A stretch of 64,000 nt of DNA from Actinomycetales bacterium (GCA_045807245.1 JBJMHS010000036.1:303-64302), one strand, 5' to 3'. Positions 20,812 to 31,866 are shown, counted from the stretch's first letter. Numbers and translations: made by a program. Notes: generated from the letters alone by a model not told the origin.

Positions 20812-22323
20812 GTGGCCCATGTCGTCGTCGTCGGCGCCGGCATGGGTGGACTGGCCGTCGCGGCCCGGCTCGCGACCCTGGGGCACCGGGTGACGGTGTG
20901 CGAGCAGTCCGGTCAGGTCGGCGGCAAGCTCGGCTGGTTCCAGCGCGACGGTTTCGCGTTCGACACGGGGCCTTCGCTGCTGACTCTGCCCGCGGTCTAT
21001 CGCGACCTGTTCCTGAAGACGGGTGGTCCGCTCGAGGACGAGGTCGACCTCACGCCGGTTGACCCCGTGTGCCGCTACCGGTTCGCCGACGGGAGCAAGG
21101 TGGACCTGCCGAACGCATCCCGGTCCGGCGTCGCGGCGGCGCTCGACGGCGCGTTCGGCGGCGGGGCCGGTGACGACTGGACCGGCCTGATGGACCGGGC
21201 AGGCCGCATCTGGGACGTGACCCGGCGGCCGTTCCTCGAGCGCCCGCTGGACGGCTGGCGCACCCTGGCCCGGCTCTCACTCCGCGTCTCGGACCTGCGG
21301 ACAGTGGCTCCGTGGCGGTCCCTGCGTGGGCTCGGGTCGGCCTACCTGCGTGACCCGCACCTGCGCATGATGCTGGACCGCTACGCGACGTACACCGGTT
21401 CCGACCCGCGGCGGGCGCCGGCCGCACTGGCCACCGTGCCCTATGTCGAGCAGACGTTCGGCGCGTGGTACGTGCGCGGCGGCCTGCGCCGGCTCGGCGA
21501 GGCGTTGCACCAACGGGCGGTGGACCGCGGAGTCGTGGTGCGCCTGTCCAGCGGCGTCGCAGCGGTGGAGACGAACGGCGGGCGGGTCAGCGGCGTTCGT
21601 CTCGTGGACGGGGAGCAGATCCCGGCCGATGTCGTCGTGTCGGACGTCGACGCCCAGGTCTTGTACGCCGATCTGCTTGCGGCACAGGCGATCTCGGGAC
21701 CATTGCGCCGCATCGAGAGAGCCACGCCGTCGTTGTCGGGCTTCGTCCTGCTGCTGGCGCTGCGCGGACGCACGCCCGGCCTGGCGCATCACAGCGTGCT
21801 GTTCCCCTCGGACTACGACGACGAGTTCGACTCGGTGTTCGGGTCTGGACCGCACAACGGAAGCCCACGGCCGGCACCGGACCCGACGATCTACGTCAGC
21901 GCACCGGACGATGCCGCGCTCCGCCCGGACGACGATCACGAGAGCTGGTTCGTGCTGGTCAACGCGCCGCGTCACGACCCCGCCGACCGGGGCCGCGGCG
22001 TGGACTGGGACGAGGCGGGCCGGGCCGCGTCGTACGCCGACCACATCCTCGCCCTGATGGCCGCCCGCGGCCTCGATGTGCGGGATCGCCTGCTGTGGAA
22101 GGAGATCCGTACGCCGGCCGACCTCGAGCGAGCGACCGGCAGCCGCGGTGGCGCGATCTACGGTACGTCGAGCAACGGGCTCCGGGCGGCGTTCCTGCGC
22201 CCGGCCAACCGGTCCCCCGTCTCCGGGCTGTTCCTGGTCGGCGGATCTGCCCACCCGGGCGGTGGGCTGCCGCTGGTCGGGCTGTCGGCCGCGATCGTCG
22301 CGGAGATGGTCGGCCGGGCCTGA
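20812..22323 (+). CDS. CrtI-family FAD desaturase, probably CrtD-type 3,4-desaturase
   Basis: VVVGAGMGGL, FDTGPSLLTLP, GAIYG..SNG..AFLRPAN, GGSAHPGGGLPLV; next to cruF and GT. Confidence 0.75.
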   Translation: MAHVVVVGAGMGGLAVAARLATLGHRVTVCEQSGQVGGKLGWFQRDGFAFDTGPSLLTLPAVYRDLFLKTGGPLEDEVDLTPVDPVCRYRFADGSKVDLPNASRSGVAAALDGAFGGGAGDDWTGLMDRAGRIWDVTRRPFLERPLDGWRTLARLSLRVSDLRTVAPWRSLRGLGSAYLRDPHLRMMLDRYATYTGSDPRRAPAALATVPYVEQTFGAWYVRGGLRRLGEALHQRAVDRGVVVRLSSGVAAVETNGGRVSGVRLVDGEQIPADVVVSDVDAQVLYADLLAAQAISGPLRRIERATPSLSGFVLLLALRGRTPGLAHHSVLFPSDYDDEFDSVFGSGPHNGSPRPAPDPTIYVSAPDDAALRPDDDHESWFVLVNAPRHDPADRGRGVDWDEAGRAASYADHILALMAARGLDVRDRLLWKEIRTPADLERATGSRGGAIYGTSSNGLRAAFLRPANRSPVSGLFLVGGSAHPGGGLPLVGLSAAIVAEMVGRA

Positions 22324-22350
22324 CCAACCCAGCGACTCGGCCGTCGTCGC

Positions 22351-23034
22351 TCAGGTGAGGCGACGCCGTACCACGAACATCAGCTGGGTCAGGCCGCCTG
22401 CCGCGGTGAGCGTCCCGACGGCCCCGCCGACGACGGCGACGTCACTGCCGCGGGAGGAGATCACTCCGGCGACGAGGAGCGTGACGAAGGTGACGATGAC
22501 CCGGGTCGGCCGCTCCCCTACGGTGACGACGTCGAGCGGCTCGCCCATCAGGGCCTGCCCGCGCGCTCGGGTGTACTCCGTCAGTGAGGACAGGCCGACC
22601 CACGCCAGCACCAGCCACACCGGTGCGCCGAGGACCCAGAGCGCCCCTCCGTAGGCCGCATCAGCGAGCCGGTCGCAGACTGCGTCGAGGACGGCACCCC
22701 ACGACGTGACCCGGTCGGTCATCACCGCGACAGCGCCGTCCAGGCTGTCGAACAGCGCCGACGTCAACACCAGAACCGCTGCGGCCAAAGCCCATTCGTC
22801 GCCCGTCCAGGTCACCAACGGGACCGTCCCGGCCGCGACCAGACCGGCCAGCGTGACTGCCGAAGGAGGCACGCGCGCCGCCGCGAACGGGCGAGCCGCC
22901 ACGTAGACGAGGGACAGCCACCCGCGGACGAAGAGGACGCCGTCCGGCTCGATGCCGTCGTGCAGCACGGACCACCGACGGAGGAAGGCGGCCCGGTCCA
23001 GGGTCAACGGTCGGTCAGCCTTCGGCCCGCGCAC
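22351..23034 (-). CDS. CDP-alcohol phosphatidyltransferase family protein
   Basis: DSLDGAVA...GAVLDAVCD signature; EYTRAR, ERPTR; start uncertain. Confidence 0.85.
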
Positions 23035-23947
23035 CGGCGAGGCCGAGCTGCTCGAAGATCTCCAATGACGATGTCGACCGGTTCAACGTGATGAAGTGCA
23101 GCCCGGGCACGCCCTCGCTCAACAGCCGCTCGCACAGCGCCGTCGCATGCTCGACCCCGATCGCCCGGACGGCGTCGGCGTCGTCCTCGACCGCGTGCAG
23201 CCGCTCGGCCAGGTCGGCCGGGAACGTCGCGTTGGACAGGATCGCGAACCGCTCGATCTGCCCGACGTTCGTCACGGGCATGATCCCCGGGATGATCGGG
23301 ACCTCGGAACCGGCGGCGACGACCCGGTCTCGCAGGCGGAGGTAGTCGTCCGCCGAGAAGAACATCTGGGTGATGGCGAAGTCGGCACCCGCGCGAACCT
23401 TGGCGACGAAGTGCTGGATGTCGCTGTCCCAGTCCGGCGAGCGCGGATGCCGCTCGGGGAAGGCCGCGACGCCGACGCAGAAGTCCCCCGACGCCTTGAT
23501 GAGCGCGACGAGCTGCTCGGCGTACTGGAGCCCGTCGGGGTGGGCCAGCCACTCCGCTCGCGGGTCGCCGGGAGGGTCGCCGCGCAGCGCCAGCACGTTC
23601 CGGACACCGGCCGCTGCGAACCCGCCGACGATCCGGCGCAGCTCCGCGACCGAGTGGTTGACGGTGGTCAGGTGCCCGACCGGACGGAGCGTCGTGTCTC
23701 GTGCCATCCGCTCGACCACGCCCAGGGTGCGCTCGCGGGTCGACCCGCCCGCGCCGTACGTCACGGAGACGAAGGTGGGGTGCAGCGGCTCCAAGCGGCG
23801 GATCGCGTCCCACAGCGTCCGCTCGCCCGCATCGGTCTTCGGCGGGAAGAACTCGAACGAGTACGACGGCACCCCCGCCGCGATCAGCTCGCGGAGGCTC
23901 TCGTGAACAGTCGGCTCGCTGACCGTCTGCGAGCGTGCGCTCACCAT
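23015..23947 (-). CDS. metF: 5,10-methylenetetrahydrofolate reductase
   Basis: [46 protein letters not shown]. Confidence 0.93.
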
Positions 23948-24034
23948 GCGACCCAGGGTAGATCGAGGGCCCGGCAAAGCGTTGCGACCGACCGAGCCGT
24001 GGACAGGTGGACCACCTACCCTCAGGACGTGGAC

Positions 24035-25111
24035 ATGCCGTCGCCGCTGGACGTCGAGGACCTGCGCTCCCGGGTGCAGAAGGTCATCGACGACCACCTC
24101 TCGCTGCAGGAGCGGCGGCTGGACGAGGTAGGCCCGGACCTGGCGGTGCTGGTCGAGGGGATCCGCGAGCTGCTCTCCGGCGGCAAGCGGCTGCGGCCGG
24201 CCTTCTGCTACTGGGGCTGGCGGGGCCTGGGGGGCGAGGACTGCGCAGAGATCGTCAACGCGGCCACCGGGCTCGAGCTGTTCCAGGCGGCGGCGCTGCT
24301 GCACGACGACGTCATGGACGGCAGCGCGATGCGGCGCGGGCGGCCGGCCATGCACCAGCACGTGGCGGGCATCCACACCGCCTTGGGCTGGTCCGGCGAC
24401 AGCGCGCGGTTCGGTGCGGCGGCCGCCACTTTGGCCGGCGACCTCTGCCTGGTCTGGAGCGACGAGCTGCTCGCGACGAGCGGTCTGCGGCCCGACCAGC
24501 TGGCGGCCGGCCGGGCGGTGTTCGACACCATGCGGACCCAGCTCATGGGCGGCCAGTACCTCGACGTCCTCGAACAGGCTGCGGCCGAGCAGCAGGGCGG
24601 CGCGGACGTGGAACGGGCCCTGCAGGTGCTGCGGTTCAAGTCGGCCAAGTACACCGTGGAGCACCCTCTGCTCCTCGGGGCCTCGATGGCGGGGGCGTCC
24701 GGGGAGGTGCTGGCCGGGCTCTCGTCGTACGGGCTGCCGCTCGGCGAGGCGTTCCAGCTGCGGGACGACGTCCTGGGCGTGTTCGGGGACCCCGAGGTGA
24801 CGGGCAAGCCGGCCGGGGACGACCTGCGCGAGGGCAAGCGCACGGTGCTCGTAGCCCAGGTACGGCGGCTGGGCACCGCGGCCGAACAGGCGGTCGTGTC
24901 AGTGCATCTCGGCGACCCTGCGCTGACCGATGCCGGGGTGCAGGAGGTGCGTGCGGCCATGGTGTCCAGCGGTGCGCTCGACAGCGTCGAGGCCATGATC
25001 GACGAACGGGCCGAGCGGGCGCGTGCCGCCCTGCGCCGGGTACCGCTCCAGGAGCCGGCCACGGAGGTGCTCGAGGCGCTCGTCGGCACCGCCACCGCGC
25101 GGCAGGCGTGA
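24035..25111 (+). CDS. crtE: Geranylgeranyl diphosphate (polyprenyl) synthase
   Basis: [44 protein letters not shown]. Confidence 0.85.
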
Positions 25112-26643
25112 TGCCGGGCCGGCGTCGCCGGGACCGACCTCGCCGAGTCAGCGGACCTACCGATCGGGTGGTCGTGGTCGGGGCCGGCCTGTCCGGTCTG
25201 TCGGCGGCCATGCGGCTGGCCGGGGCGGGGCGCGAGGTCACGGTGCTGGAGTCGGCATCCGTGCCGGGCGGTCGGGCCGGGCTGCTCGAGCTGGCGGCCC
25301 TCGATGGAGCAGGCACGTACCGGATCGACCCCGGCCCGACCGTGCTGACCATGCCCAGCCTGATCGACGACTGCTTCGACGCGCTCGGCGAGCGCAGGTC
25401 GGACTGGCTCGAGCTGCGCCGGGTCGAGCCGGCGTACCGGGCCCACTTCGCCGACGGCTCGCGCCTCGACGTGCACACGGATGTCGAGCGGATGGCGGCC
25501 GAGGTGGCGGCGGTCTGCGGTGGGGCGGCAGCCGACGGCTATCGCCGCTACGTCGAGTTCGTGACCCGGCTGTACCGCTGGGAGATGCGCAGCTTCATCG
25601 ACCGCAACGTCGACTCGCCCCTGGACCTCATGCGACCGGACCTCGTGCGACTGGCCGTCGCGGGCGGGTTCCGGCGGCTCGCACCGGTGCTCGCGTCGTA
25701 CCTGCCGGACGAGCGGCTGCAGCGCGTCTTCGGGTTCCAGGCGATGTACGCCGGACTGTCGCCGTACGAGGCGTTGGCCATCTACGCGGTGATCTCCTAC
25801 ATGGATTCCGTTGCGGGCGTGTGGTTCCCGGTCGGCGGTATGCACGCGCTGCCGGTTGCGATGGCTGCTGCCGCGACGTCGCACGGTGTCAAGGTGCGTT
25901 ACGACACACGGGTCGTCTCGATCGAGCGCCGGGGTGAACGCGCGGTCGGTGTCGTGACGGCTCACGGCGAGCACGTGCCCGCGGACGTCGTCGTGGTGAC
26001 GGCCGACCTGCCCGTGGCGTACCGCGAGCTGCTCGGGACAGAGCTGCGCCGGTTGCGCTACTCACCGTCGTGCTGGCTGATGCTGGCGGGCTCGCGACGC
26101 AAGGACGCCCGCGCGGTGCATCACGAGATCCACTTCGGGGCGGCGTGGCGGCGGACCTTCGAGGAGATCCTGGGCGGACGGCTGCAGTCGGATCCTTCGC
26201 TGCTGGTGAGCACGCCGACCGTCACCGACCGCGAGCTCGCCCCACCTGGCCGGTCGGTCCACTATGTGCTCGTCCCGACGCCGAACCTGGACGGTCCGGT
26301 CGACTGGGCAGCGGTGGGGCCGGCGTACCGGCAGCACGTGCTCGGTGTGCTGGAGCAGCGGGGCTACGGCGGGTTCGAGAGCGGGGTCGAGGTGGAGTCG
26401 GTCGTCACGCCGGCCGACTGGGCGGCACGTGGCATGGAGCGTGGGACGCCCTTCGCCGCGGCGCACACGTTCGGCCAGACCGGGCCGTTCCGCCCGGGCA
26501 ACCTGCTCGGCGAGAACGTCGTGTTCGCCGGGTCAGGAACCGTGCCGGGGGTCGGCGTGCCGATGGTGCTGGTGAGCGGACGGCTGGCCGCCGAGCGGGT
26601 CACCGGCCCGGACCCGGCCTACCGCTCTCGCGCTTACCCCTGA
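25111..26643 (+). CDS. crtI: Phytoene desaturase
   Basis: VVVGAGLSGL, DPGPTVLTMP, FQAMYAG, AHTFGQTGPFRP, GSGTVPGVGVPMVLVSG. Confidence 0.9.
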   Translation: MPGRRRRDRPRRVSGPTDRVVVVGAGLSGLSAAMRLAGAGREVTVLESASVPGGRAGLLELAALDGAGTYRIDPGPTVLTMPSLIDDCFDALGERRSDWLELRRVEPAYRAHFADGSRLDVHTDVERMAAEVAAVCGGAAADGYRRYVEFVTRLYRWEMRSFIDRNVDSPLDLMRPDLVRLAVAGGFRRLAPVLASYLPDERLQRVFGFQAMYAGLSPYEALAIYAVISYMDSVAGVWFPVGGMHALPVAMAAAATSHGVKVRYDTRVVSIERRGERAVGVVTAHGEHVPADVVVVTADLPVAYRELLGTELRRLRYSPSCWLMLAGSRRKDARAVHHEIHFGAAWRRTFEEILGGRLQSDPSLLVSTPTVTDRELAPPGRSVHYVLVPTPNLDGPVDWAAVGPAYRQHVLGVLEQRGYGGFESGVEVESVVTPADWAARGMERGTPFAAAHTFGQTGPFRPGNLLGENVVFAGSGTVPGVGVPMVLVSGRLAAERVTGPDPAYRSRAYP

Positions 26644-26728
26644 CAGTCCGTCGAATGGGCGCCCACGACACGCCGCCCCTCGACCGTCAATGACCGGCGT
26701 GGCCCGAGTCTGGGTCGACGGAGTGTCA
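26641..26728. repeat. 88-nt palindromic (REP-like) unit, copy 1, at the 3' end of the DUF559 gene
   Basis: cctgacagtccgtcga (26639-26654) pairs with tcgacggagtgtcagg (26715-26730), 15/16; inner cacgccg/cggcgtg stem. Confidence 0.7.
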
Positions 26729-27583
26729 GGCCGGGCGGGCCGGGTGGAACCACAGCGGCGGGTGTCCGCGATCCAGTGTCTCGGCCACGACGGCGCTGAA
26801 CCACCTCCGGCGACGGAGCAGGTCGCCATACGTGAAGCGAAGCACCACAAAGCCGAGGCGAGTGAGCTCGGCATCGCGCCGTCTGTCCTCCCGGAATGTC
26901 TCGCGGTGGTGCGCCCAGCCGTCGAGCTCGAGCACCAACCACCGAGCCACAACGAGGTCCACCCAGCCGACCTGGTCCACGTAGACCTGGCTCGCGACGT
27001 CGACCTGGCCATCCAGCCGCAGCTGGACCCGTGCCACCGACTCCAGGACCGACTGGGCGGCGGGGTCCGCCAGCGACATGACCCGCGCCGAACGGGCCGA
27101 GCGCGGGCCAGCGCGGGTGATGCGACTCAGATCAGAGGCGTCCACACGTCCCGCCCGTAGGGCCGAGTCGACGACAGCCACTGCCTCGGGCAGCGGCAGA
27201 CAGATCGTGCAGTCATGGAGCACGGCATCCAGGGCCACCAGTCGGCCCGGTCCTCGACCCCAGGGATGCCGGACCACGGTGCGGTCACGCAGATCGGGAC
27301 GGGGAGCGGCAATGGTTCGCACATGGACCTCTCCGTCGTCGTGGAAAGTTTCCAGTCCATGGGCACGAGCCCCAGTCCCGCACGTGAGCTGACCGCTGGC
27401 GACGACCGCACGCACCACGGGTGTGGCGACCATCTCGGGCCGGCAGAAGACTCCACGCGCTGGGCGCGCGATGCTTCCCGCCGTCGCCAACGCCAGCAGC
27501 GAGCCTCGACTGACTCCCAGTCGCGCCAGGTCGGCCCAGCGGGCGACCCCGCCGCTCAGGTCGAGGGCCGCGAGGGGATGCAC
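26726..27583 (-). CDS. AbiEi-like N-terminal domain / DUF559 (Vsr-like PD-(D/E)xK) endonuclease protein
   Basis: GGVARWADL..ARGVF N-terminus; AVVDSAL, AQSVLESVARV, WVDLVV..LVLELDGWAHH..DRRRDAELTRLGFVVLRFTY. Confidence 0.8.
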   Translation of the reverse strand: MHPLAALDLSGGVARWADLARLGVSRGSLLALATAGSIARPARGVFCRPEMVATPVVRAVVASGQLTCGTGARAHGLETFHDDGEVHVRTIAAPRPDLRDRTVVRHPWGRGPGRLVALDAVLHDCTICLPLPEAVAVVDSALRAGRVDASDLSRITRAGPRSARSARVMSLADPAAQSVLESVARVQLRLDGQVDVASQVYVDQVGWVDLVVARWLVLELDGWAHHRETFREDRRRDAELTRLGFVVLRFTYGDLLRRRRWFSAVVAETLDRGHPPLWFHPARPA

Positions 27584-27635
27584 CGGTGGACCATCCCGTA
27601 GATCCCCAGACACCGTCGGCGTCCATCCACACCCG

Positions 27636-27723
27636 TGAAAGTTCGTCGAGAGGCAGCGGCGACACGCGGCCGGAGCACCCGCAGATGCGCGGCGCGTCTC
27701 ATTGTTGGCACGACGCAATGTCG
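27636..27723. repeat. 88-nt palindromic (REP-like) unit, diverged copy 2, upstream of the DUF559 gene
   Basis: tgaaagttcgtcga...cgacacgcggcc...cggcgcg...cgacgcaatgtcg aligns end-to-end with copy 1. Confidence 0.6.
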
Positions 27724-27778
27724 AGGACGAAGCGCGTCAGCGGGCAAGGGTTGCGCACCGGGCCGGGACAATGAGGGC

Positions 27779-28708
27779 GTGGTCCATCCCGCGCACTCTC
27801 ACGCCCTGACGAGTGCCGGCATCGACGACCCGGAGCTGCGCGCGTCCTACCAGCTGTGCCGCCAGCTGGCGGCCGAGCACGGCAAGACCTACTACCTGGC
27901 CACCTGGCTGCTGCCGCCGGCGAAGCGCCCGCACGTCTGGGCGCTCTACGGTTTCGCGCGCTGGGCGGACGAGTTCGTCGACTCGATGACCCACCCCGAC
28001 CCGGAGGGCCTGCTCGTCTGGGGCAAGCAGGCCCTTGACGACCTGGTCCGCGGTCAGTCCGACGACCCGGTCGTCAAGGCCACCGCGCACACCGTGCGCA
28101 GCCTGGACCTCGACGTCGAGCTGTTCGAGACGTTCCTGGCGTCCATGCGGATGGACATCACCGTGACGGCCTACCCGACCTTCGCGGAGCTGCAGCGCTA
28201 CACCCGCGGCTCGGCCATGGTGATCGGCCTCATGATGCTGCCGGTGCTGGGGCCGCTCACGACGGAGGCGGCAGCACCGGCGGAGGCTCTGGGCGAGGCA
28301 TTCCAGCTGACCAACTTCATCCGGGACGTCCCCGAGGACCTGGCCCGTGGCCGGATCTACCTGCCGCAGGAGGACCTCGACCGCTACGGCGTGACCCGGG
28401 CCGATCTGGTCCGCGGCGTCGTGACCGAGCCGGTCCGCCGGCTGCTGGCGTTCGAGGTCGATCGCACCCGTGCCCTCTACGAGCGGGCCCGCCCCGGCGT
28501 CGCCCTGGTCGAGCCGGCCAGCCGCCCGTGCCTGCGCACGGCGATCGAGCTGTACGGCGGCATCCTCGACGAGGTGGAGCGCGCGGGCTACGACGTCTTC
28601 CGCAGCCGCCTCGCCGTCCCGAACCGGCGCCGAGCATCGGTCGCGGTCCCGGCCTGGGTCAGCTCCCTGCGAGCCCGTCGCGACGCCGCGCGCTGGCGCC
28701 AGACCTGA
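27779..28708 (+). CDS. crtB: Phytoene synthase
   Basis: HGKTYY, ALYGFARWADEFVD, SMRMD, GEAFQLTNFIRDVPEDLARGRIYLP. Confidence 0.92.
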   Translation: MVHPAHSHALTSAGIDDPELRASYQLCRQLAAEHGKTYYLATWLLPPAKRPHVWALYGFARWADEFVDSMTHPDPEGLLVWGKQALDDLVRGQSDDPVVKATAHTVRSLDLDVELFETFLASMRMDITVTAYPTFAELQRYTRGSAMVIGLMMLPVLGPLTTEAAAPAEALGEAFQLTNFIRDVPEDLARGRIYLPQEDLDRYGVTRADLVRGVVTEPVRRLLAFEVDRTRALYERARPGVALVEPASRPCLRTAIELYGGILDEVERAGYDVFRSRLAVPNRRRASVAVPAWVSSLRARRDAARWRQT

Positions 28709-29045
28709 CCGACGCCGACGGGTCCACGCCGCGCCGCCCCCAGAACATCCACCAGGCCAAGGTCTGCAGCACCAGCGCAAACCCGAAGCCGATGTCCTCG
28801 ACCGGCGCGTACAGAACCCGACCGTCCCCGAACGCCACCGCCCCTGACCCGCCGATCACAGAGTCTCCCGAGTACGCGACGATCCCCCGGCCGGTCAGCC
28901 ACCCGTTCGTCAGGAGCTGGAAGCCGAGCATGATCGCGTACGCCACCCAGAACGCCCGCCGCCCCAGCAGCCTGGTCCGCAGCACCACCAGGTCGAGCCC
29001 GCACGACAGCCCGACCGCCACCACGGCCAACAGGGAGTAGCTCAC
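28659..29045 (-). CDS. crtYd: Heterodimeric lycopene cyclase subunit
   Basis: Small membrane protein; FQLLTNGWLTG, APVEDIGFGF (PxE(D/E) motif). Confidence 0.75.
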   Translation of the reverse strand: MSYSLLAVVAVGLSCGLDLVVLRTRLLGRRAFWVAYAIMLGFQLLTNGWLTGRGIVAYSGDSVIGGSGAVAFGDGRVLYAPVEDIGFGFALVLQTLAWWMFWGRRGVDPSASVRSGASARRRDGLAGS

Positions 29046-29395
29046 CGGTCAGCCCCGCCCTCGTCGCCCGCGGGCCAGCCTCGCACCGCCTGGACCGCTT
29101 CGAGCGTGAGCACGGCGGCGATGGGTACGACGAGGAAGAACAGCACCTCCTCGACGGGCAGCCCGCCCAGCAACCCCGAGGGCAGCCGCACGCCGAGGGT
29201 CTGGGCCCGGTCGAAGGACCACTGTCCGCGATCGACCGCATACAGGTCCCACGCGACGAAGACCGGCACCACCGGCAGCAGGGTCAGCAACAGCCGCCGC
29301 CAGCGGCGGTAGACCCCGACGTGCAGGAAGAGCTCCAACGGCGCGGTCCCGGCCAGGCAGAACGCCAGCATGGCCAGATAGCTCAGATGCCGCAC
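29042..29395 (-). CDS. crtYc: Heterodimeric lycopene cyclase subunit
   Basis: FVAWDLYA..GQWSF..LPVEEVLFF. Confidence 0.78.
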   Translation of the reverse strand: MRHLSYLAMLAFCLAGTAPLELFLHVGVYRRWRRLLLTLLPVVPVFVAWDLYAVDRGQWSFDRAQTLGVRLPSGLLGGLPVEEVLFFLVVPIAAVLTLEAVQAVRGWPAGDEGGADR

Positions 29396-29426
29396 GAACC
29401 CGCCGAGACCCCGACTGCGGTGACCG

Positions 29427-29798
29427 TCAGAACGCCAGGGCCTGGGCCCGGCGCCGGATCTCGGTCTTACGCCCCGACCGCAAGTTCTCGATCGGCGAGC
29501 CGGGCAGGGACGGGTCCGGTGTGAACAGCCAGCGCAGTGTGTCCTCGTCGCTGTACCCCGCATCGGACAGGAGGGTCACGGTCCCGGGCAGCTCGGACAA
29601 CGGTTGGCCGTCCATGACCAACAGGGCCGGCACGCACAGCTCCGCACCCGACCCGGCCGACGGGCGGCGCCGTACCGCGACCAGCTGGCGGTCACGCAAC
29701 AGCCGGCGGACCCGGCGTACGTCGATCTCGAGCAGGTCGGCCACCTCCTGCATGGTGAGCCAGCTCTCGACCAGCGACTCGAGCTCAGCGTCCGGCAC
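29427..29798 (-). CDS. Rv2175c-family DNA-binding (wHTH) protein
   Basis: WLTMQEVADLL, LPGTVTLLSDAGYSDEDTLRWLFT, EIRRRAQALAF; divergent from pknL. Confidence 0.85.
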   Translation of the reverse strand: MPDAELESLVESWLTMQEVADLLEIDVRRVRRLLRDRQLVAVRRRPSAGSGAELCVPALLVMDGQPLSELPGTVTLLSDAGYSDEDTLRWLFTPDPSLPGSPIENLRSGRKTEIRRRAQALAF

Positions 29799-29907
29799 GC
29801 GGCCCAGCCTGCCACCGTGCCGTCCGGCGAGGGAACTATCACCAAACCCGCACGCACGCGACACTCCGTTGCCCGGGGTTGGCGCTGCGCGAACGTAGAC
29901 TCCTCGG

Positions 29908-31866
29908 GTGGATACGACCGTCGCCGACCCCTTGGTGGGCCGGGTGCTGGAGGGCCGGTACGCCGTGCGCTCCCGCATCGCACGCGGCGGCATGGCCACC
30001 GTCTACCTCGCCGTCGACCAGCGGCTGGACCGTGACGTCGCGCTCAAGGTGATGCACGCCGACCTGGCCCAGGACCAGGAGTTCCTGCGCCGGTTCGTGC
30101 GAGAGGCGCGCTCGGCGGCCCGGTTGTCGCACCCGGGGGTCGTCGCGGTCTACGACCAGGGCGAGGACGACGGCTCGTGGTTCCTGGTGATGGAGTACGT
30201 CGCCGGCCATACCCTGCGGGACCTGCTCAACGAGCGCGGGCGGCTGACCCCGCGCGAGGCCCTCGCGCTGCTCGACCCCGTGCTGGATGCGCTCGCCGCG
30301 GCGCATTGGAACGGCATCATCCACCGGGACATCAAGCCCGAGAACGTGTTGCTGGCCGACGACGGCCGGCTCAAGGTCGCCGACTTCGGGCTGGCGCGTG
30401 CCGTCACCACGACGACCACGACGCAGCAGGACAGCAAGGTCCTGCTCGGCACGGTCGCGTACCTCGCACCCGAGCAGGTCGAGCGCAACGTCGCGGACGC
30501 GCGCAGCGACGTCTACGCCGTCGGGATCCTGCTGTTCGAGATGCTCACCGGGCGCAAGCCGTTCGTCGGTGACACACCGATCCAGGTCGCGTACCAGCAT
30601 GTCCACTCCGACGTCCCGCTCCCCTCCGCCATGGCGACCGGCATCGCGCCGGCTCTCGACGAGCTGGTACGACGCGCAACGTCGCGCGACGCGGACCAGC
30701 GGCCGGCGGACGCCGGTGAGCTGCTGGTCGAGGCGCGTCGCACGCGGGCGTCCCTGACGCCGGACGAGCTCGACGGCACGGCGGCCATCCCGATGACCCA
30801 GCTCGACGCCGACCAGACCGTCGCGGTCGCCGCCCCGATACCGAGCGCGGTGCCGGCTCCGGGTGCCTTCGCGGCGCCCGGCGGCCCGCCACCGGGCGCG
30901 GCGTACGTCCCGGGCGCGCACTCCTCACCCACCGGAGTGCTGGACCTGCGCGACGTACCACCGACCCGTGGCGGCACCCGCCGGCGGCACACGGGTCGCA
31001 ACGCCGCCATCCTGATCCTGGTCGCGGCTCTCGTCCTCGGCATCGCGGGCTGGTACGTCGGCGCCGGTCCGGGCTCGAAGATCTCCACGCCCAACGTGTT
31101 GCGGCAGAGCCAGGCGGCCGCGGAGAAAGCACTCCAGGCCAAGGGGCTGGACAGCAAGGTCGTCCAGGTGTTCAGCGAGACCGTCAGCGCCGGCCTGGTC
31201 GCGATGACCGACCCCGCGCCCGGCCAGCCGGTCAGCAAACACGGCACCGTGACGTTGCAGGTGTCCAAGGGGCCGGAGCGTTATCCGGTGCCGCAGGTCG
31301 TCGGCAAGGACAAGGACGTCGCCGAGGCCGCCATCACGGACCAACACCTGGCCGTTGGCGAGGTCCGGAGCCAGTACAGCGACACCGTCGCGCCGGGACT
31401 GGTCATCTCGACCAACCCGCCGACGGGCACGCAGCTCGCTCCCGGCAAGGCGGTTGACCTGGTGGTGAGCAAGGGTCCCGCGCCGGTCGACATCGTGGAC
31501 TGGACCGGCCAGCCCATCGACGAGGCGACCCAGGCTCTGAACGCCGACGGCCTCAAGGTCAAGGTCACCGAGAAGTACAACGAGAAGGTCGCCGAGGGCG
31601 TCATCGTCTCGCAGTCCCCGGGCGCGGGCACCGTGCACCGTGGCGACACGATCACCTTCGTGGTCTCCAAGGGGCCGCCCCTCGTCGAGGTCCCGTCGGT
31701 GACCGGCAAGTCGGAGAAGGACGCCAGGCGGATCCTGCACCAGGCGGGCTTCAAGGTGAAGGTCAGCAACATCTTCGGCGGGATCTTCGGCACGGTGCGG
31801 TTCCAGGACCCCGGCGGCGGCGAGCAGGCGCCCAAGGGCAGCGTCGTCACGATCTCCGTCGTCTAG
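29908..31866 (+). CDS. pknL: PASTA-domain Ser/Thr protein kinase (PknL-like)
   Basis: IARGGMATVY, VALKVM, HRDIKPEN, DFG, YLAPE; TM helix; four PASTA repeats. Confidence 0.88.
   Translation: MDTTVADPLVGRVLEGRYAVRSRIARGGMATVYLAVDQRLDRDVALKVMHADLAQDQEFLRRFVREARSAARLSHPGVVAVYDQGEDDGSWFLVMEYVAGHTLRDLLNERGRLTPREALALLDPVLDALAAAHWNGIIHRDIKPENVLLADDGRLKVADFGLARAVTTTTTTQQDSKVLLGTVAYLAPEQVERNVADARSDVYAVGILLFEMLTGRKPFVGDTPIQVAYQHVHSDVPLPSAMATGIAPALDELVRRATSRDADQRPADAGELLVEARRTRASLTPDELDGTAAIPMTQLDADQTVAVAAPIPSAVPAPGAFAAPGGPPPGAAYVPGAHSSPTGVLDLRDVPPTRGGTRRRHTGRNAAILILVAALVLGIAGWYVGAGPGSKISTPNVLRQSQAAAEKALQAKGLDSKVVQVFSETVSAGLVAMTDPAPGQPVSKHGTVTLQVSKGPERYPVPQVVGKDKDVAEAAITDQHLAVGEVRSQYSDTVAPGLVISTNPPTGTQLAPGKAVDLVVSKGPAPVDIVDWTGQPIDEATQALNADGLKVKVTEKYNEKVAEGVIVSQSPGAGTVHRGDTITFVVSKGPPLVEVPSVTGKSEKDARRILHQAGFKVKVSNIFGGIFGTVRFQDPGGGEQAPKGSVVTISVV

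Follow-up and report, generated by a model that had tools for sequence, protein, structure and literature searches.

The window analysed here, a 64,000-nucleotide stretch of a 3.56-Mb Actinomycetales genome (G000), carries a minus-strand nuclease gene that separates crtI from crtB. The features at this locus, in window coordinates, are as follows.

25108..26643, plus strand: crtI-type phytoene desaturase, the left neighbour (open reading frame end; Amino_oxidase match, 1e-43, over 25120-26643)
26641..26728, no strand: unit 1, the downstream copy of an 88-bp four-box palindrome (motifs, profile), with box A at 26641-26653, B at 26666-26675, B' at 26695-26704 and A' at 26716-26728
26726..27583, minus strand: AbiEi-like plus Vsr-like DUF559 nuclease gene, 285 aa (Pfam, homologues, structure model)
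27626..27631, minus strand: TGTGGA motif separating unit 2 from the start codon, conserved in each crt-linked relative examined
27636..27723, no strand: unit 2, the upstream copy and predicted operator, 52 bp before the start codon, in a position conserved across orthologues
27773..28708, plus strand: crtB phytoene synthase, the right neighbour (SQS_PSY, 3.5e-78)

The name crtI and the start position of that gene are provisional, assigned from fold family and gene order. The surroundings (20812-29999) are an ordinary carotenoid cluster, with a second crtI-like gene, MTHFR, a polyprenyl synthase, two lycopene cyclase genes and an Rv2175c-like gene, and part of the window is contained in 10 sequencing runs. 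A promoter and terminator scan gave no sigma-70 promoter match and no terminator match. The nuclease gene probably starts at GTG 27583, which yields 285 aa in agreement with database entry P0001 and with the homologues; on the same grounds we rejected TTG 27718, which lies inside unit 2. The TGA stop of crtI provides the first three bases of unit 1 (26641), and the stop of the nuclease gene, TCA at 26726-26728, forms its end. The initial annotation had placed both stop codons within the terminal arms of unit 1, and these arms indeed hold them, being 16 bp long (26639-26654 and 26715-26730) and 94% complementary.

Shortly 5' of the start codon, TGTGGA (or TCCACA) occurs in every crt-linked relative and in several paralogues (loci L002, L003, L069, L149-L153, L156 and L250; paralogues on contigs C61, C70, C32 and C73). 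We take this motif to resemble a DnaA box, which might link expression of the nuclease gene to replication. One empty crtI-crtB gap (L246, genome G035) retains CTGTGGA, possibly as the scar of a lost gene.

Both AbiEi_4 and DUF559 exceed their Pfam cut-offs in the 285-residue protein, confirming its earlier identification as an AbiEi/DUF559 nuclease; NCBIfam gave no match to it. An AbiEi-like winged helix and a C-terminal module occupy residues ~1-170, followed by a Vsr-like DUF559 nuclease at ~171-272. Among 62 full-length homologues (out of 84 matches), S178, E181, D209, E219, D221, G222, H226 and D233 are invariant, and the spacing of E181, D209, D221 and H226 fits that of E170, D196, N208 and H213 in I-Bth0305I (extracts of PMC3239194). 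The structure model has a pLDDT of 93.7. Foldseek places Rv2827c and AbiEi first and then ngo0050, I-Bth0305I and Vsr, and there is sequence-level support too; its matches include 1zel (E = 2e-4), 6y8q (E = 5e-4) and 3r3p (rmsd 2.4 Å over 94 columns).

The units flanking the gene belong to a family of 13 loci in G000, each 87-88 bp and 11 of them solitary, identified by motif search and profile across the 3.56-Mb genome. Twelve of the 13 were first found by the arm-pair motif search; the profile, built from the same 13 loci, returns all of them at E <= 7e-9, with the next match at E = 2 and the best match in the reversed genome at E = 5.9. As described earlier, units 1 and 2 lie at 26641-26728 and 27636-27723, are identical at 12 of their first 14 bases and have an inner CGACACGC.GCC box in common. 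Their relatedness as palindromes holds in that both belong to the one family, but only unit 1 folds better than shuffled sequences (z -2.5/-2.3); unit 2 is degenerate and folds no better than shuffles (z +0.4/+0.7). The "direct orientation" attributed to the pair carries little meaning because the units are self-complementary.

A unit consists of box A (TGACASTYSGTCG), ~11 variable bases, box B (CGACACGCCG), ~19 variable bases, and then inverted B and inverted A. Among the half-units of 25 units, 13 from G000 and 12 from G002 after removal of one near-duplicate locus from the latter, box B stands at an offset of 24 in 45 of 50 cases and of 25 in the other 5. These half-units show no left-right covariation beyond the consensus. 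Pairing within a unit is no better than between halves taken from different units (arm 0.846 versus 0.841; spacer 0.346 versus 0.330); we rejected hairpin covariation, and the repeat fits binding sites better than a selected hairpin. What is conserved in the repeat is box sequence and spacing; base pairing is not conserved. The spacers show no recognisable sharing between copies (best-of-four identities of 0.43 and 0.49, figures that carry no random baseline). The earlier statement that target-site duplications are absent extends to 25 of 25 units, at which abutting direct repeats measure 0-2 nt. The arm consensus lacks a GTAG tag, and Rfam gave nothing at the gathering threshold, its two matches lying far below gathering scores. 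A lone perfect box A, with the remaining unit parts missing, is present at C41:15586-15598 of G000.

All 11 solitary copies are intergenic. By a rough, purpose-made gene caller, 5 are in convergent gaps, 6 in tandem gaps and 0 in divergent gaps, against a background of 106, 682 and 373 (1161 gaps), and the convergent enrichment is significant (5/11 versus 106/1161; Fisher p = 0.002). Four of the copies overlap a stop codon.

The same arrangement recurs within the genome. G000 has eight nuclease paralogues at eight sites, and six are bracketed on both sides, each by a repeat family of its own (13, 31, 34, 7, 2 and 2 copies). A seventh is accompanied by a 5-copy repeat on its downstream side, and none was found for the eighth. 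No repeat family adjoins a second paralogue, and reversed controls gave 0. The paralogues are all distant, so there is no recent duplicate among them. The three largest families together have 71 solitary copies, 36 in convergent gaps and 6 in divergent ones (background divergent, 373/1161). The pairs at C54:10172-11466 and C70:16024-17360 have 31 and 34 copies, and these larger families are better candidates for catching young copies. The HUH (RAYT) family Y1_Tnp (PF01797), the sole transposase family searched, was found in 0 of 5 congeners (control 6/14). With further genomic copies, paralogues with their own flanking repeats and no HUH transposase found, the REP/RAYT-like layout proposed in the initial annotation is borne out.

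We also surveyed flanks at 131 full-length homologue loci (out of 186), many of which have common upstream and downstream sequence; we took no count, because redundancy among near-identical loci made the control unusable and the known G002 pair escaped the score. Homologues of the Actinomyces group (L071-L094, L160-L175) have a different flank type, with long direct repeats on both sides of the gene (most scores 86-241).

Gene-linked and dispersed copies match genome by genome. In 9 of 10 crt-linked relatives, a palindrome of 76-96 bp lies 52-64 bp upstream of the start codon, with TGTGGA after it; the distant L156 is the one with no upstream palindrome. The downstream unit is found, besides G000, only in G002 and is absent from 8 of the 10. 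The arm sequence of the upstream palindrome varies by lineage. The G000-type pattern has 12 matches in G000 and 14 in G002 (one chance-like, two being versions of one locus); among 401 genomes of the order, more than two matches occur in only two, both gene carriers, and 11 other genomes match once or twice, compared with 6 genomes for the reversed control. The agreement extends to the first base: in G000, 21 of 26 ends begin with T, and in G002, 25 of 26 begin with A, the base that each genome's gene-linked copy has as well. In the G001 unit, length, GAC and box B are retained but the outer arms differ, and this arm variant occurs 6 times in G001 and 0 times in 7 other genomes. The palindrome of G091 occurs 6 times in that genome and 0 times in 4 others; for a third own-repeat pattern, three single 3-mismatch matches in other genomes were chance-like.

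Dispersed copy number ranges from 1 to 14 per genome. Own-pattern counts, which as single-pattern counts are lower bounds, were 2 in G402 and G404 and 1 in G403 and G405; with three carriers having only 1-2 such matches and a fourth having 2, an intact gene does not imply spread. In G012 the gene is broken, yet the genome's own pattern has 2 matches, likewise a lower bound. The congeners without the gene, G003 and G004, are also without the repeat, within genomes that are 82% and 53% complete, respectively: in G003 neither the two arm types nor the inner box gave a match, and G004 has two control-level matches and one inner-box remnant. Winged-helix identity is 74% and 68% in the two same-arm pairs and at most 58% in the other 43, which is only suggestive of covariation between protein and repeat, as the same-arm pairs are also close kin.

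The gene has a long history at this junction. G002 has a 61% orthologue with two units at the same junction, and G001 a 55% orthologue at the same junction but inverted, with one upstream unit; the closest homologues in contig scans are also located at crtI-crtB. G012 has a decayed gene copy, and G003 and G004 have a short, empty crtI-crtB junction and no close homologue. Among 31 loci chosen by crtB similarity, 6 have an intact gene, 1 a broken one and 20 none, with 4 unscorable, so that the gene is missing at 20 of 27 scorable junctions. An intact close orthologue is present in 5 of 15 genomes of a second family. Each genome has one close homologue, at the same junction. The empty junctions have no evident conserved site in common, as judged by eye. 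Nine crt-linked proteins form one clade (96/98) with two branches, the genus of G000 and a second group, and this deep split recurs in the crtB tree (100/99), where the empty G004 is sister to the carrier G002; the two trees were compared informally, their shallow nodes are not resolved, and the genomes are kin, hence non-independent samples, with only five congeners in existence. Occupancy of one junction in two families, with a deep split matching that of crtB, points to an old, vertically inherited resident gene with losses and one inversion, and no fresh insertion. Sister junctions yield empty sites in G003 and G004, and orthologues occupy the same junction in G002, G001 and the second family.

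The repeat, by comparison, differs in position between lineages. Synteny on both sides allows 4 of the 11 solitary G002 loci to be located in G000, where the unit is absent at three and present at one. One G001 unit sits where the G000 genes abut with 3 bases between them. For three G000 sites, a G000-type unit was found at 0 of 11 sister loci, several of which carry another palindrome at that gene end. Units are present at the ino1 junction in both G000 and G001, each with the arm type of its own genome around a similar core, which could mean in-place arm change under selection and not new copying. In the ino1 series (L037, L283/L300, L284, L286), G004 has the inner-box hairpin only and G003 is empty; the series is possibly one of arm replacement and decay. 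A single gene end carries a different palindrome in each of four congeners (L045, L280, L281, L282), and the G001 palindrome there resembles the repeat of the G000 paralogue on C32. No recent copying event was caught, whether from spacers, which are not recognisably shared between copies, or from metagenome contigs: at the locus and along a 19-kb stretch with three repeat copies, none of the contig joints listed skips or inverts a unit; the coverage is fragmentary, and this is evidence neither way.

In G000 and its relatives, then, a gene is paired with a repeat, the two match genome by genome, the positions of the repeat differ and the nuclease motif is intact. On balance we favour, if without great confidence, a REPIN/RAYT-like partnership of a long-resident gene with its own 88-bp repeat, in which an unrelated enzyme would bind the repeat as double-stranded DNA. 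The nuclease likely spreads or maintains its own repeat; the gene itself relocates rarely, whereas the repeat does change position. Monomers of AbiEi recognise inverted repeats of 23 bp located 5' of the gene that encodes them; Rv2827c has four such repeats (extracts of PMC7319586). The AbiEi-like winged-helix module may bind the boxes in duplex DNA, their 24-bp period being close to the 23 bp bound by a single AbiEi monomer, and the upstream unit may act as an autorepression operator. The Vsr-like domain would then nick at or beside a bound unit, and recombinational host repair would occasionally copy the repeat to new gene ends, where new copies would be tolerated, with no target duplication. 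Binding, cutting and copying are all inferred.

The strongest alternative is a host-selected network of binding sites, in which the nuclease binds its units in a cellular role (a replication or repair checkpoint, chromosome organisation or transcript handling at the ends of genes); new copies would seldom arise, would do so by unrelated means, and would then be kept matched to the protein by selection. This seems unlikely to us, although several findings agree with it: boxes and spacing are conserved and spacers are not, the ino1 arms differ in place, different palindrome families occupy one gene end in four congeners, and the gene is old and has kept its catalytic residues. The network would have to accommodate a gene and repeat that are often missing (20/27 scorable junctions), a copy number that spans 1 to 14 and positions mostly not common to congeners, and it offers no source for new copies of fixed length.

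The initial annotation viewed unit, gene and unit as an autonomous, transposase-free cassette recently inserted between crtI and crtB. Recent autonomous movement of this kind is largely refuted, and we consider the cassette improbable, since the same junction is occupied in two families with a split as deep as that in crtB, 8 of 10 crt-linked relatives have the upstream palindrome at most and no downstream unit, the G000 paralogues are all distant, and no relative emerged from viral contigs, none of whose 139 pattern matches was confirmed. Several observations favour the cassette, namely the patchy presence of the gene, the inversion of palindrome and gene as a module at the same junction in G001, the location of sister-clade genes elsewhere in Kineococcus records, the eight paralogues at eight sites, and the use of the same nuclease fold to drive homing in I-Bth0305I (extracts of PMC3239194).

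Repression of their own promoters by AbiEi-family proteins via inverted repeats (extracts of PMC7319586), together with the upstream palindrome being the conserved part, would suit an ordinary autoregulated nuclease or regulator whose dispersed palindromes are regulon operators. The orientation of the gaps makes this very improbable: 0 of 11 solitary copies, and 6 of 71 over three families, lie in divergent gaps, which make up 373 of 1161 in the background. Several copies overlap stop codons, and the neighbouring genes have no evident common function and differ by lineage. Least probable of all is an orphan type IV toxin-antitoxin or abortive-infection module lying among host repeats by chance, which the AbiEi-like N-terminus recommends but which fails its defining test in that the AbiEii toxin (PF08843) was not found in the G000 genome (control 3/14), PADLOC matches are confined to residues 9-66, and the pairing of one paralogue with one repeat goes beyond chance. 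Each of the three less likely alternatives (recently mobile cassette, regulon, orphan toxin-antitoxin module) fails a direct test.

The arrangement of a repeat with a dedicated AbiEi-Vsr nuclease is real and is undescribed in the literature we searched; that search, which covered main texts and few subscription papers, found no described link between DUF559 and repeats among the papers listed. DUF559 genes are enriched among predicted inversion targets (extracts of PMC9881135). We tentatively propose, with rather less confidence than we give the partnership itself, that a further class of repeat replicator acting within the genome, the second, arose independently in actinobacteria: several AbiEi-Vsr nucleases per genome, each recognising its own palindrome in duplex DNA, would copy it to gene ends by nicking and repair, with specificity and repeat turning over together. 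If so, DUF559 proteins with an AbiEi N-terminus, a large uncharacterised family, would gain a function, and an origin would be provided for the palindromes lying between genes in these actinobacteria. The locus combines a long vertical history with arm turnover that is tracked by the dispersed copies, and with no covariation. In G000, G002 and G001 the same locus has the same inner box and swapped outer arms, so binding and cutting of cognate and non-cognate sites can be assayed directly. Fast turnover of specificity on a small nuclease also means that the family may supply long-site nickases.

MITEs are short non-coding elements with terminal inverted arms. The G000 repeat is likewise short, non-coding and bounded by inverted arms, but it has no target-site duplication, its interiors are unshared and its terminal base varies by genome (T, A or G). 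Nor is the system an AbiE module or a homing endonuclease gene. AbiEi and Rv2827c are the best structural matches of the nuclease, and their inverted repeats, like the conserved palindrome here, lie upstream of their own gene. The AbiE type IV toxin-antitoxin systems differ in other respects: here there is no AbiEii, crtI and crtB flank the gene, the protein carries a nuclease domain in addition, the site has four boxes, two forward and then two reverse, and it is found also downstream of the gene and across the chromosome. With I-Bth0305I and Vsr (EDxHD) the protein has in common the nuclease fold, the catalytic E, D, H and D, and a DNA-binding domain N-terminal to the nuclease (extracts of PMC3239194). 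EDxHD homing endonucleases are encoded in an intron or intein and cut the empty allele. This gene, in contrast, is free-standing and intergenic, with no intron or intein, and the allele that carries it also retains its presumed site, next to the gene.

The closest likeness in layout is to REPIN/RAYT systems and TIRtrons. RAYTs are the sole enzymes we found described as partners of REP-type repeats, and none was found here; lacking the HUH transposase and the GTAG tag of REP hairpins, which are read as single-stranded DNA, the G000 system is not a REPIN/RAYT member. Its enzyme is AbiEi-like and Vsr-like in place of an HUH Y1 transposase, its halves do not covary, and its families number 1-34 copies, not hundreds. 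The enzyme is flanked by its cognate repeat, as in REPIN/RAYT systems, on both sides in G000 and G002 and upstream only in most other carriers. The system is also actinobacterial, and the main text of PMC3733652 has 0 mentions of Actinobacteria. Vertical inheritance with losses, as reported for RAYTs (extracts of PMC5581495), parallels the history of the nuclease gene. Like REPIN/RAYT systems and TIRtrons, the G000 system joins a mostly vertically inherited enzyme gene to a dispersed extragenic repeat of two inverted halves at a fixed distance, with several such gene-repeat pairs per genome (extracts of PMC3116915, PMC5581495 and PMC3733652).
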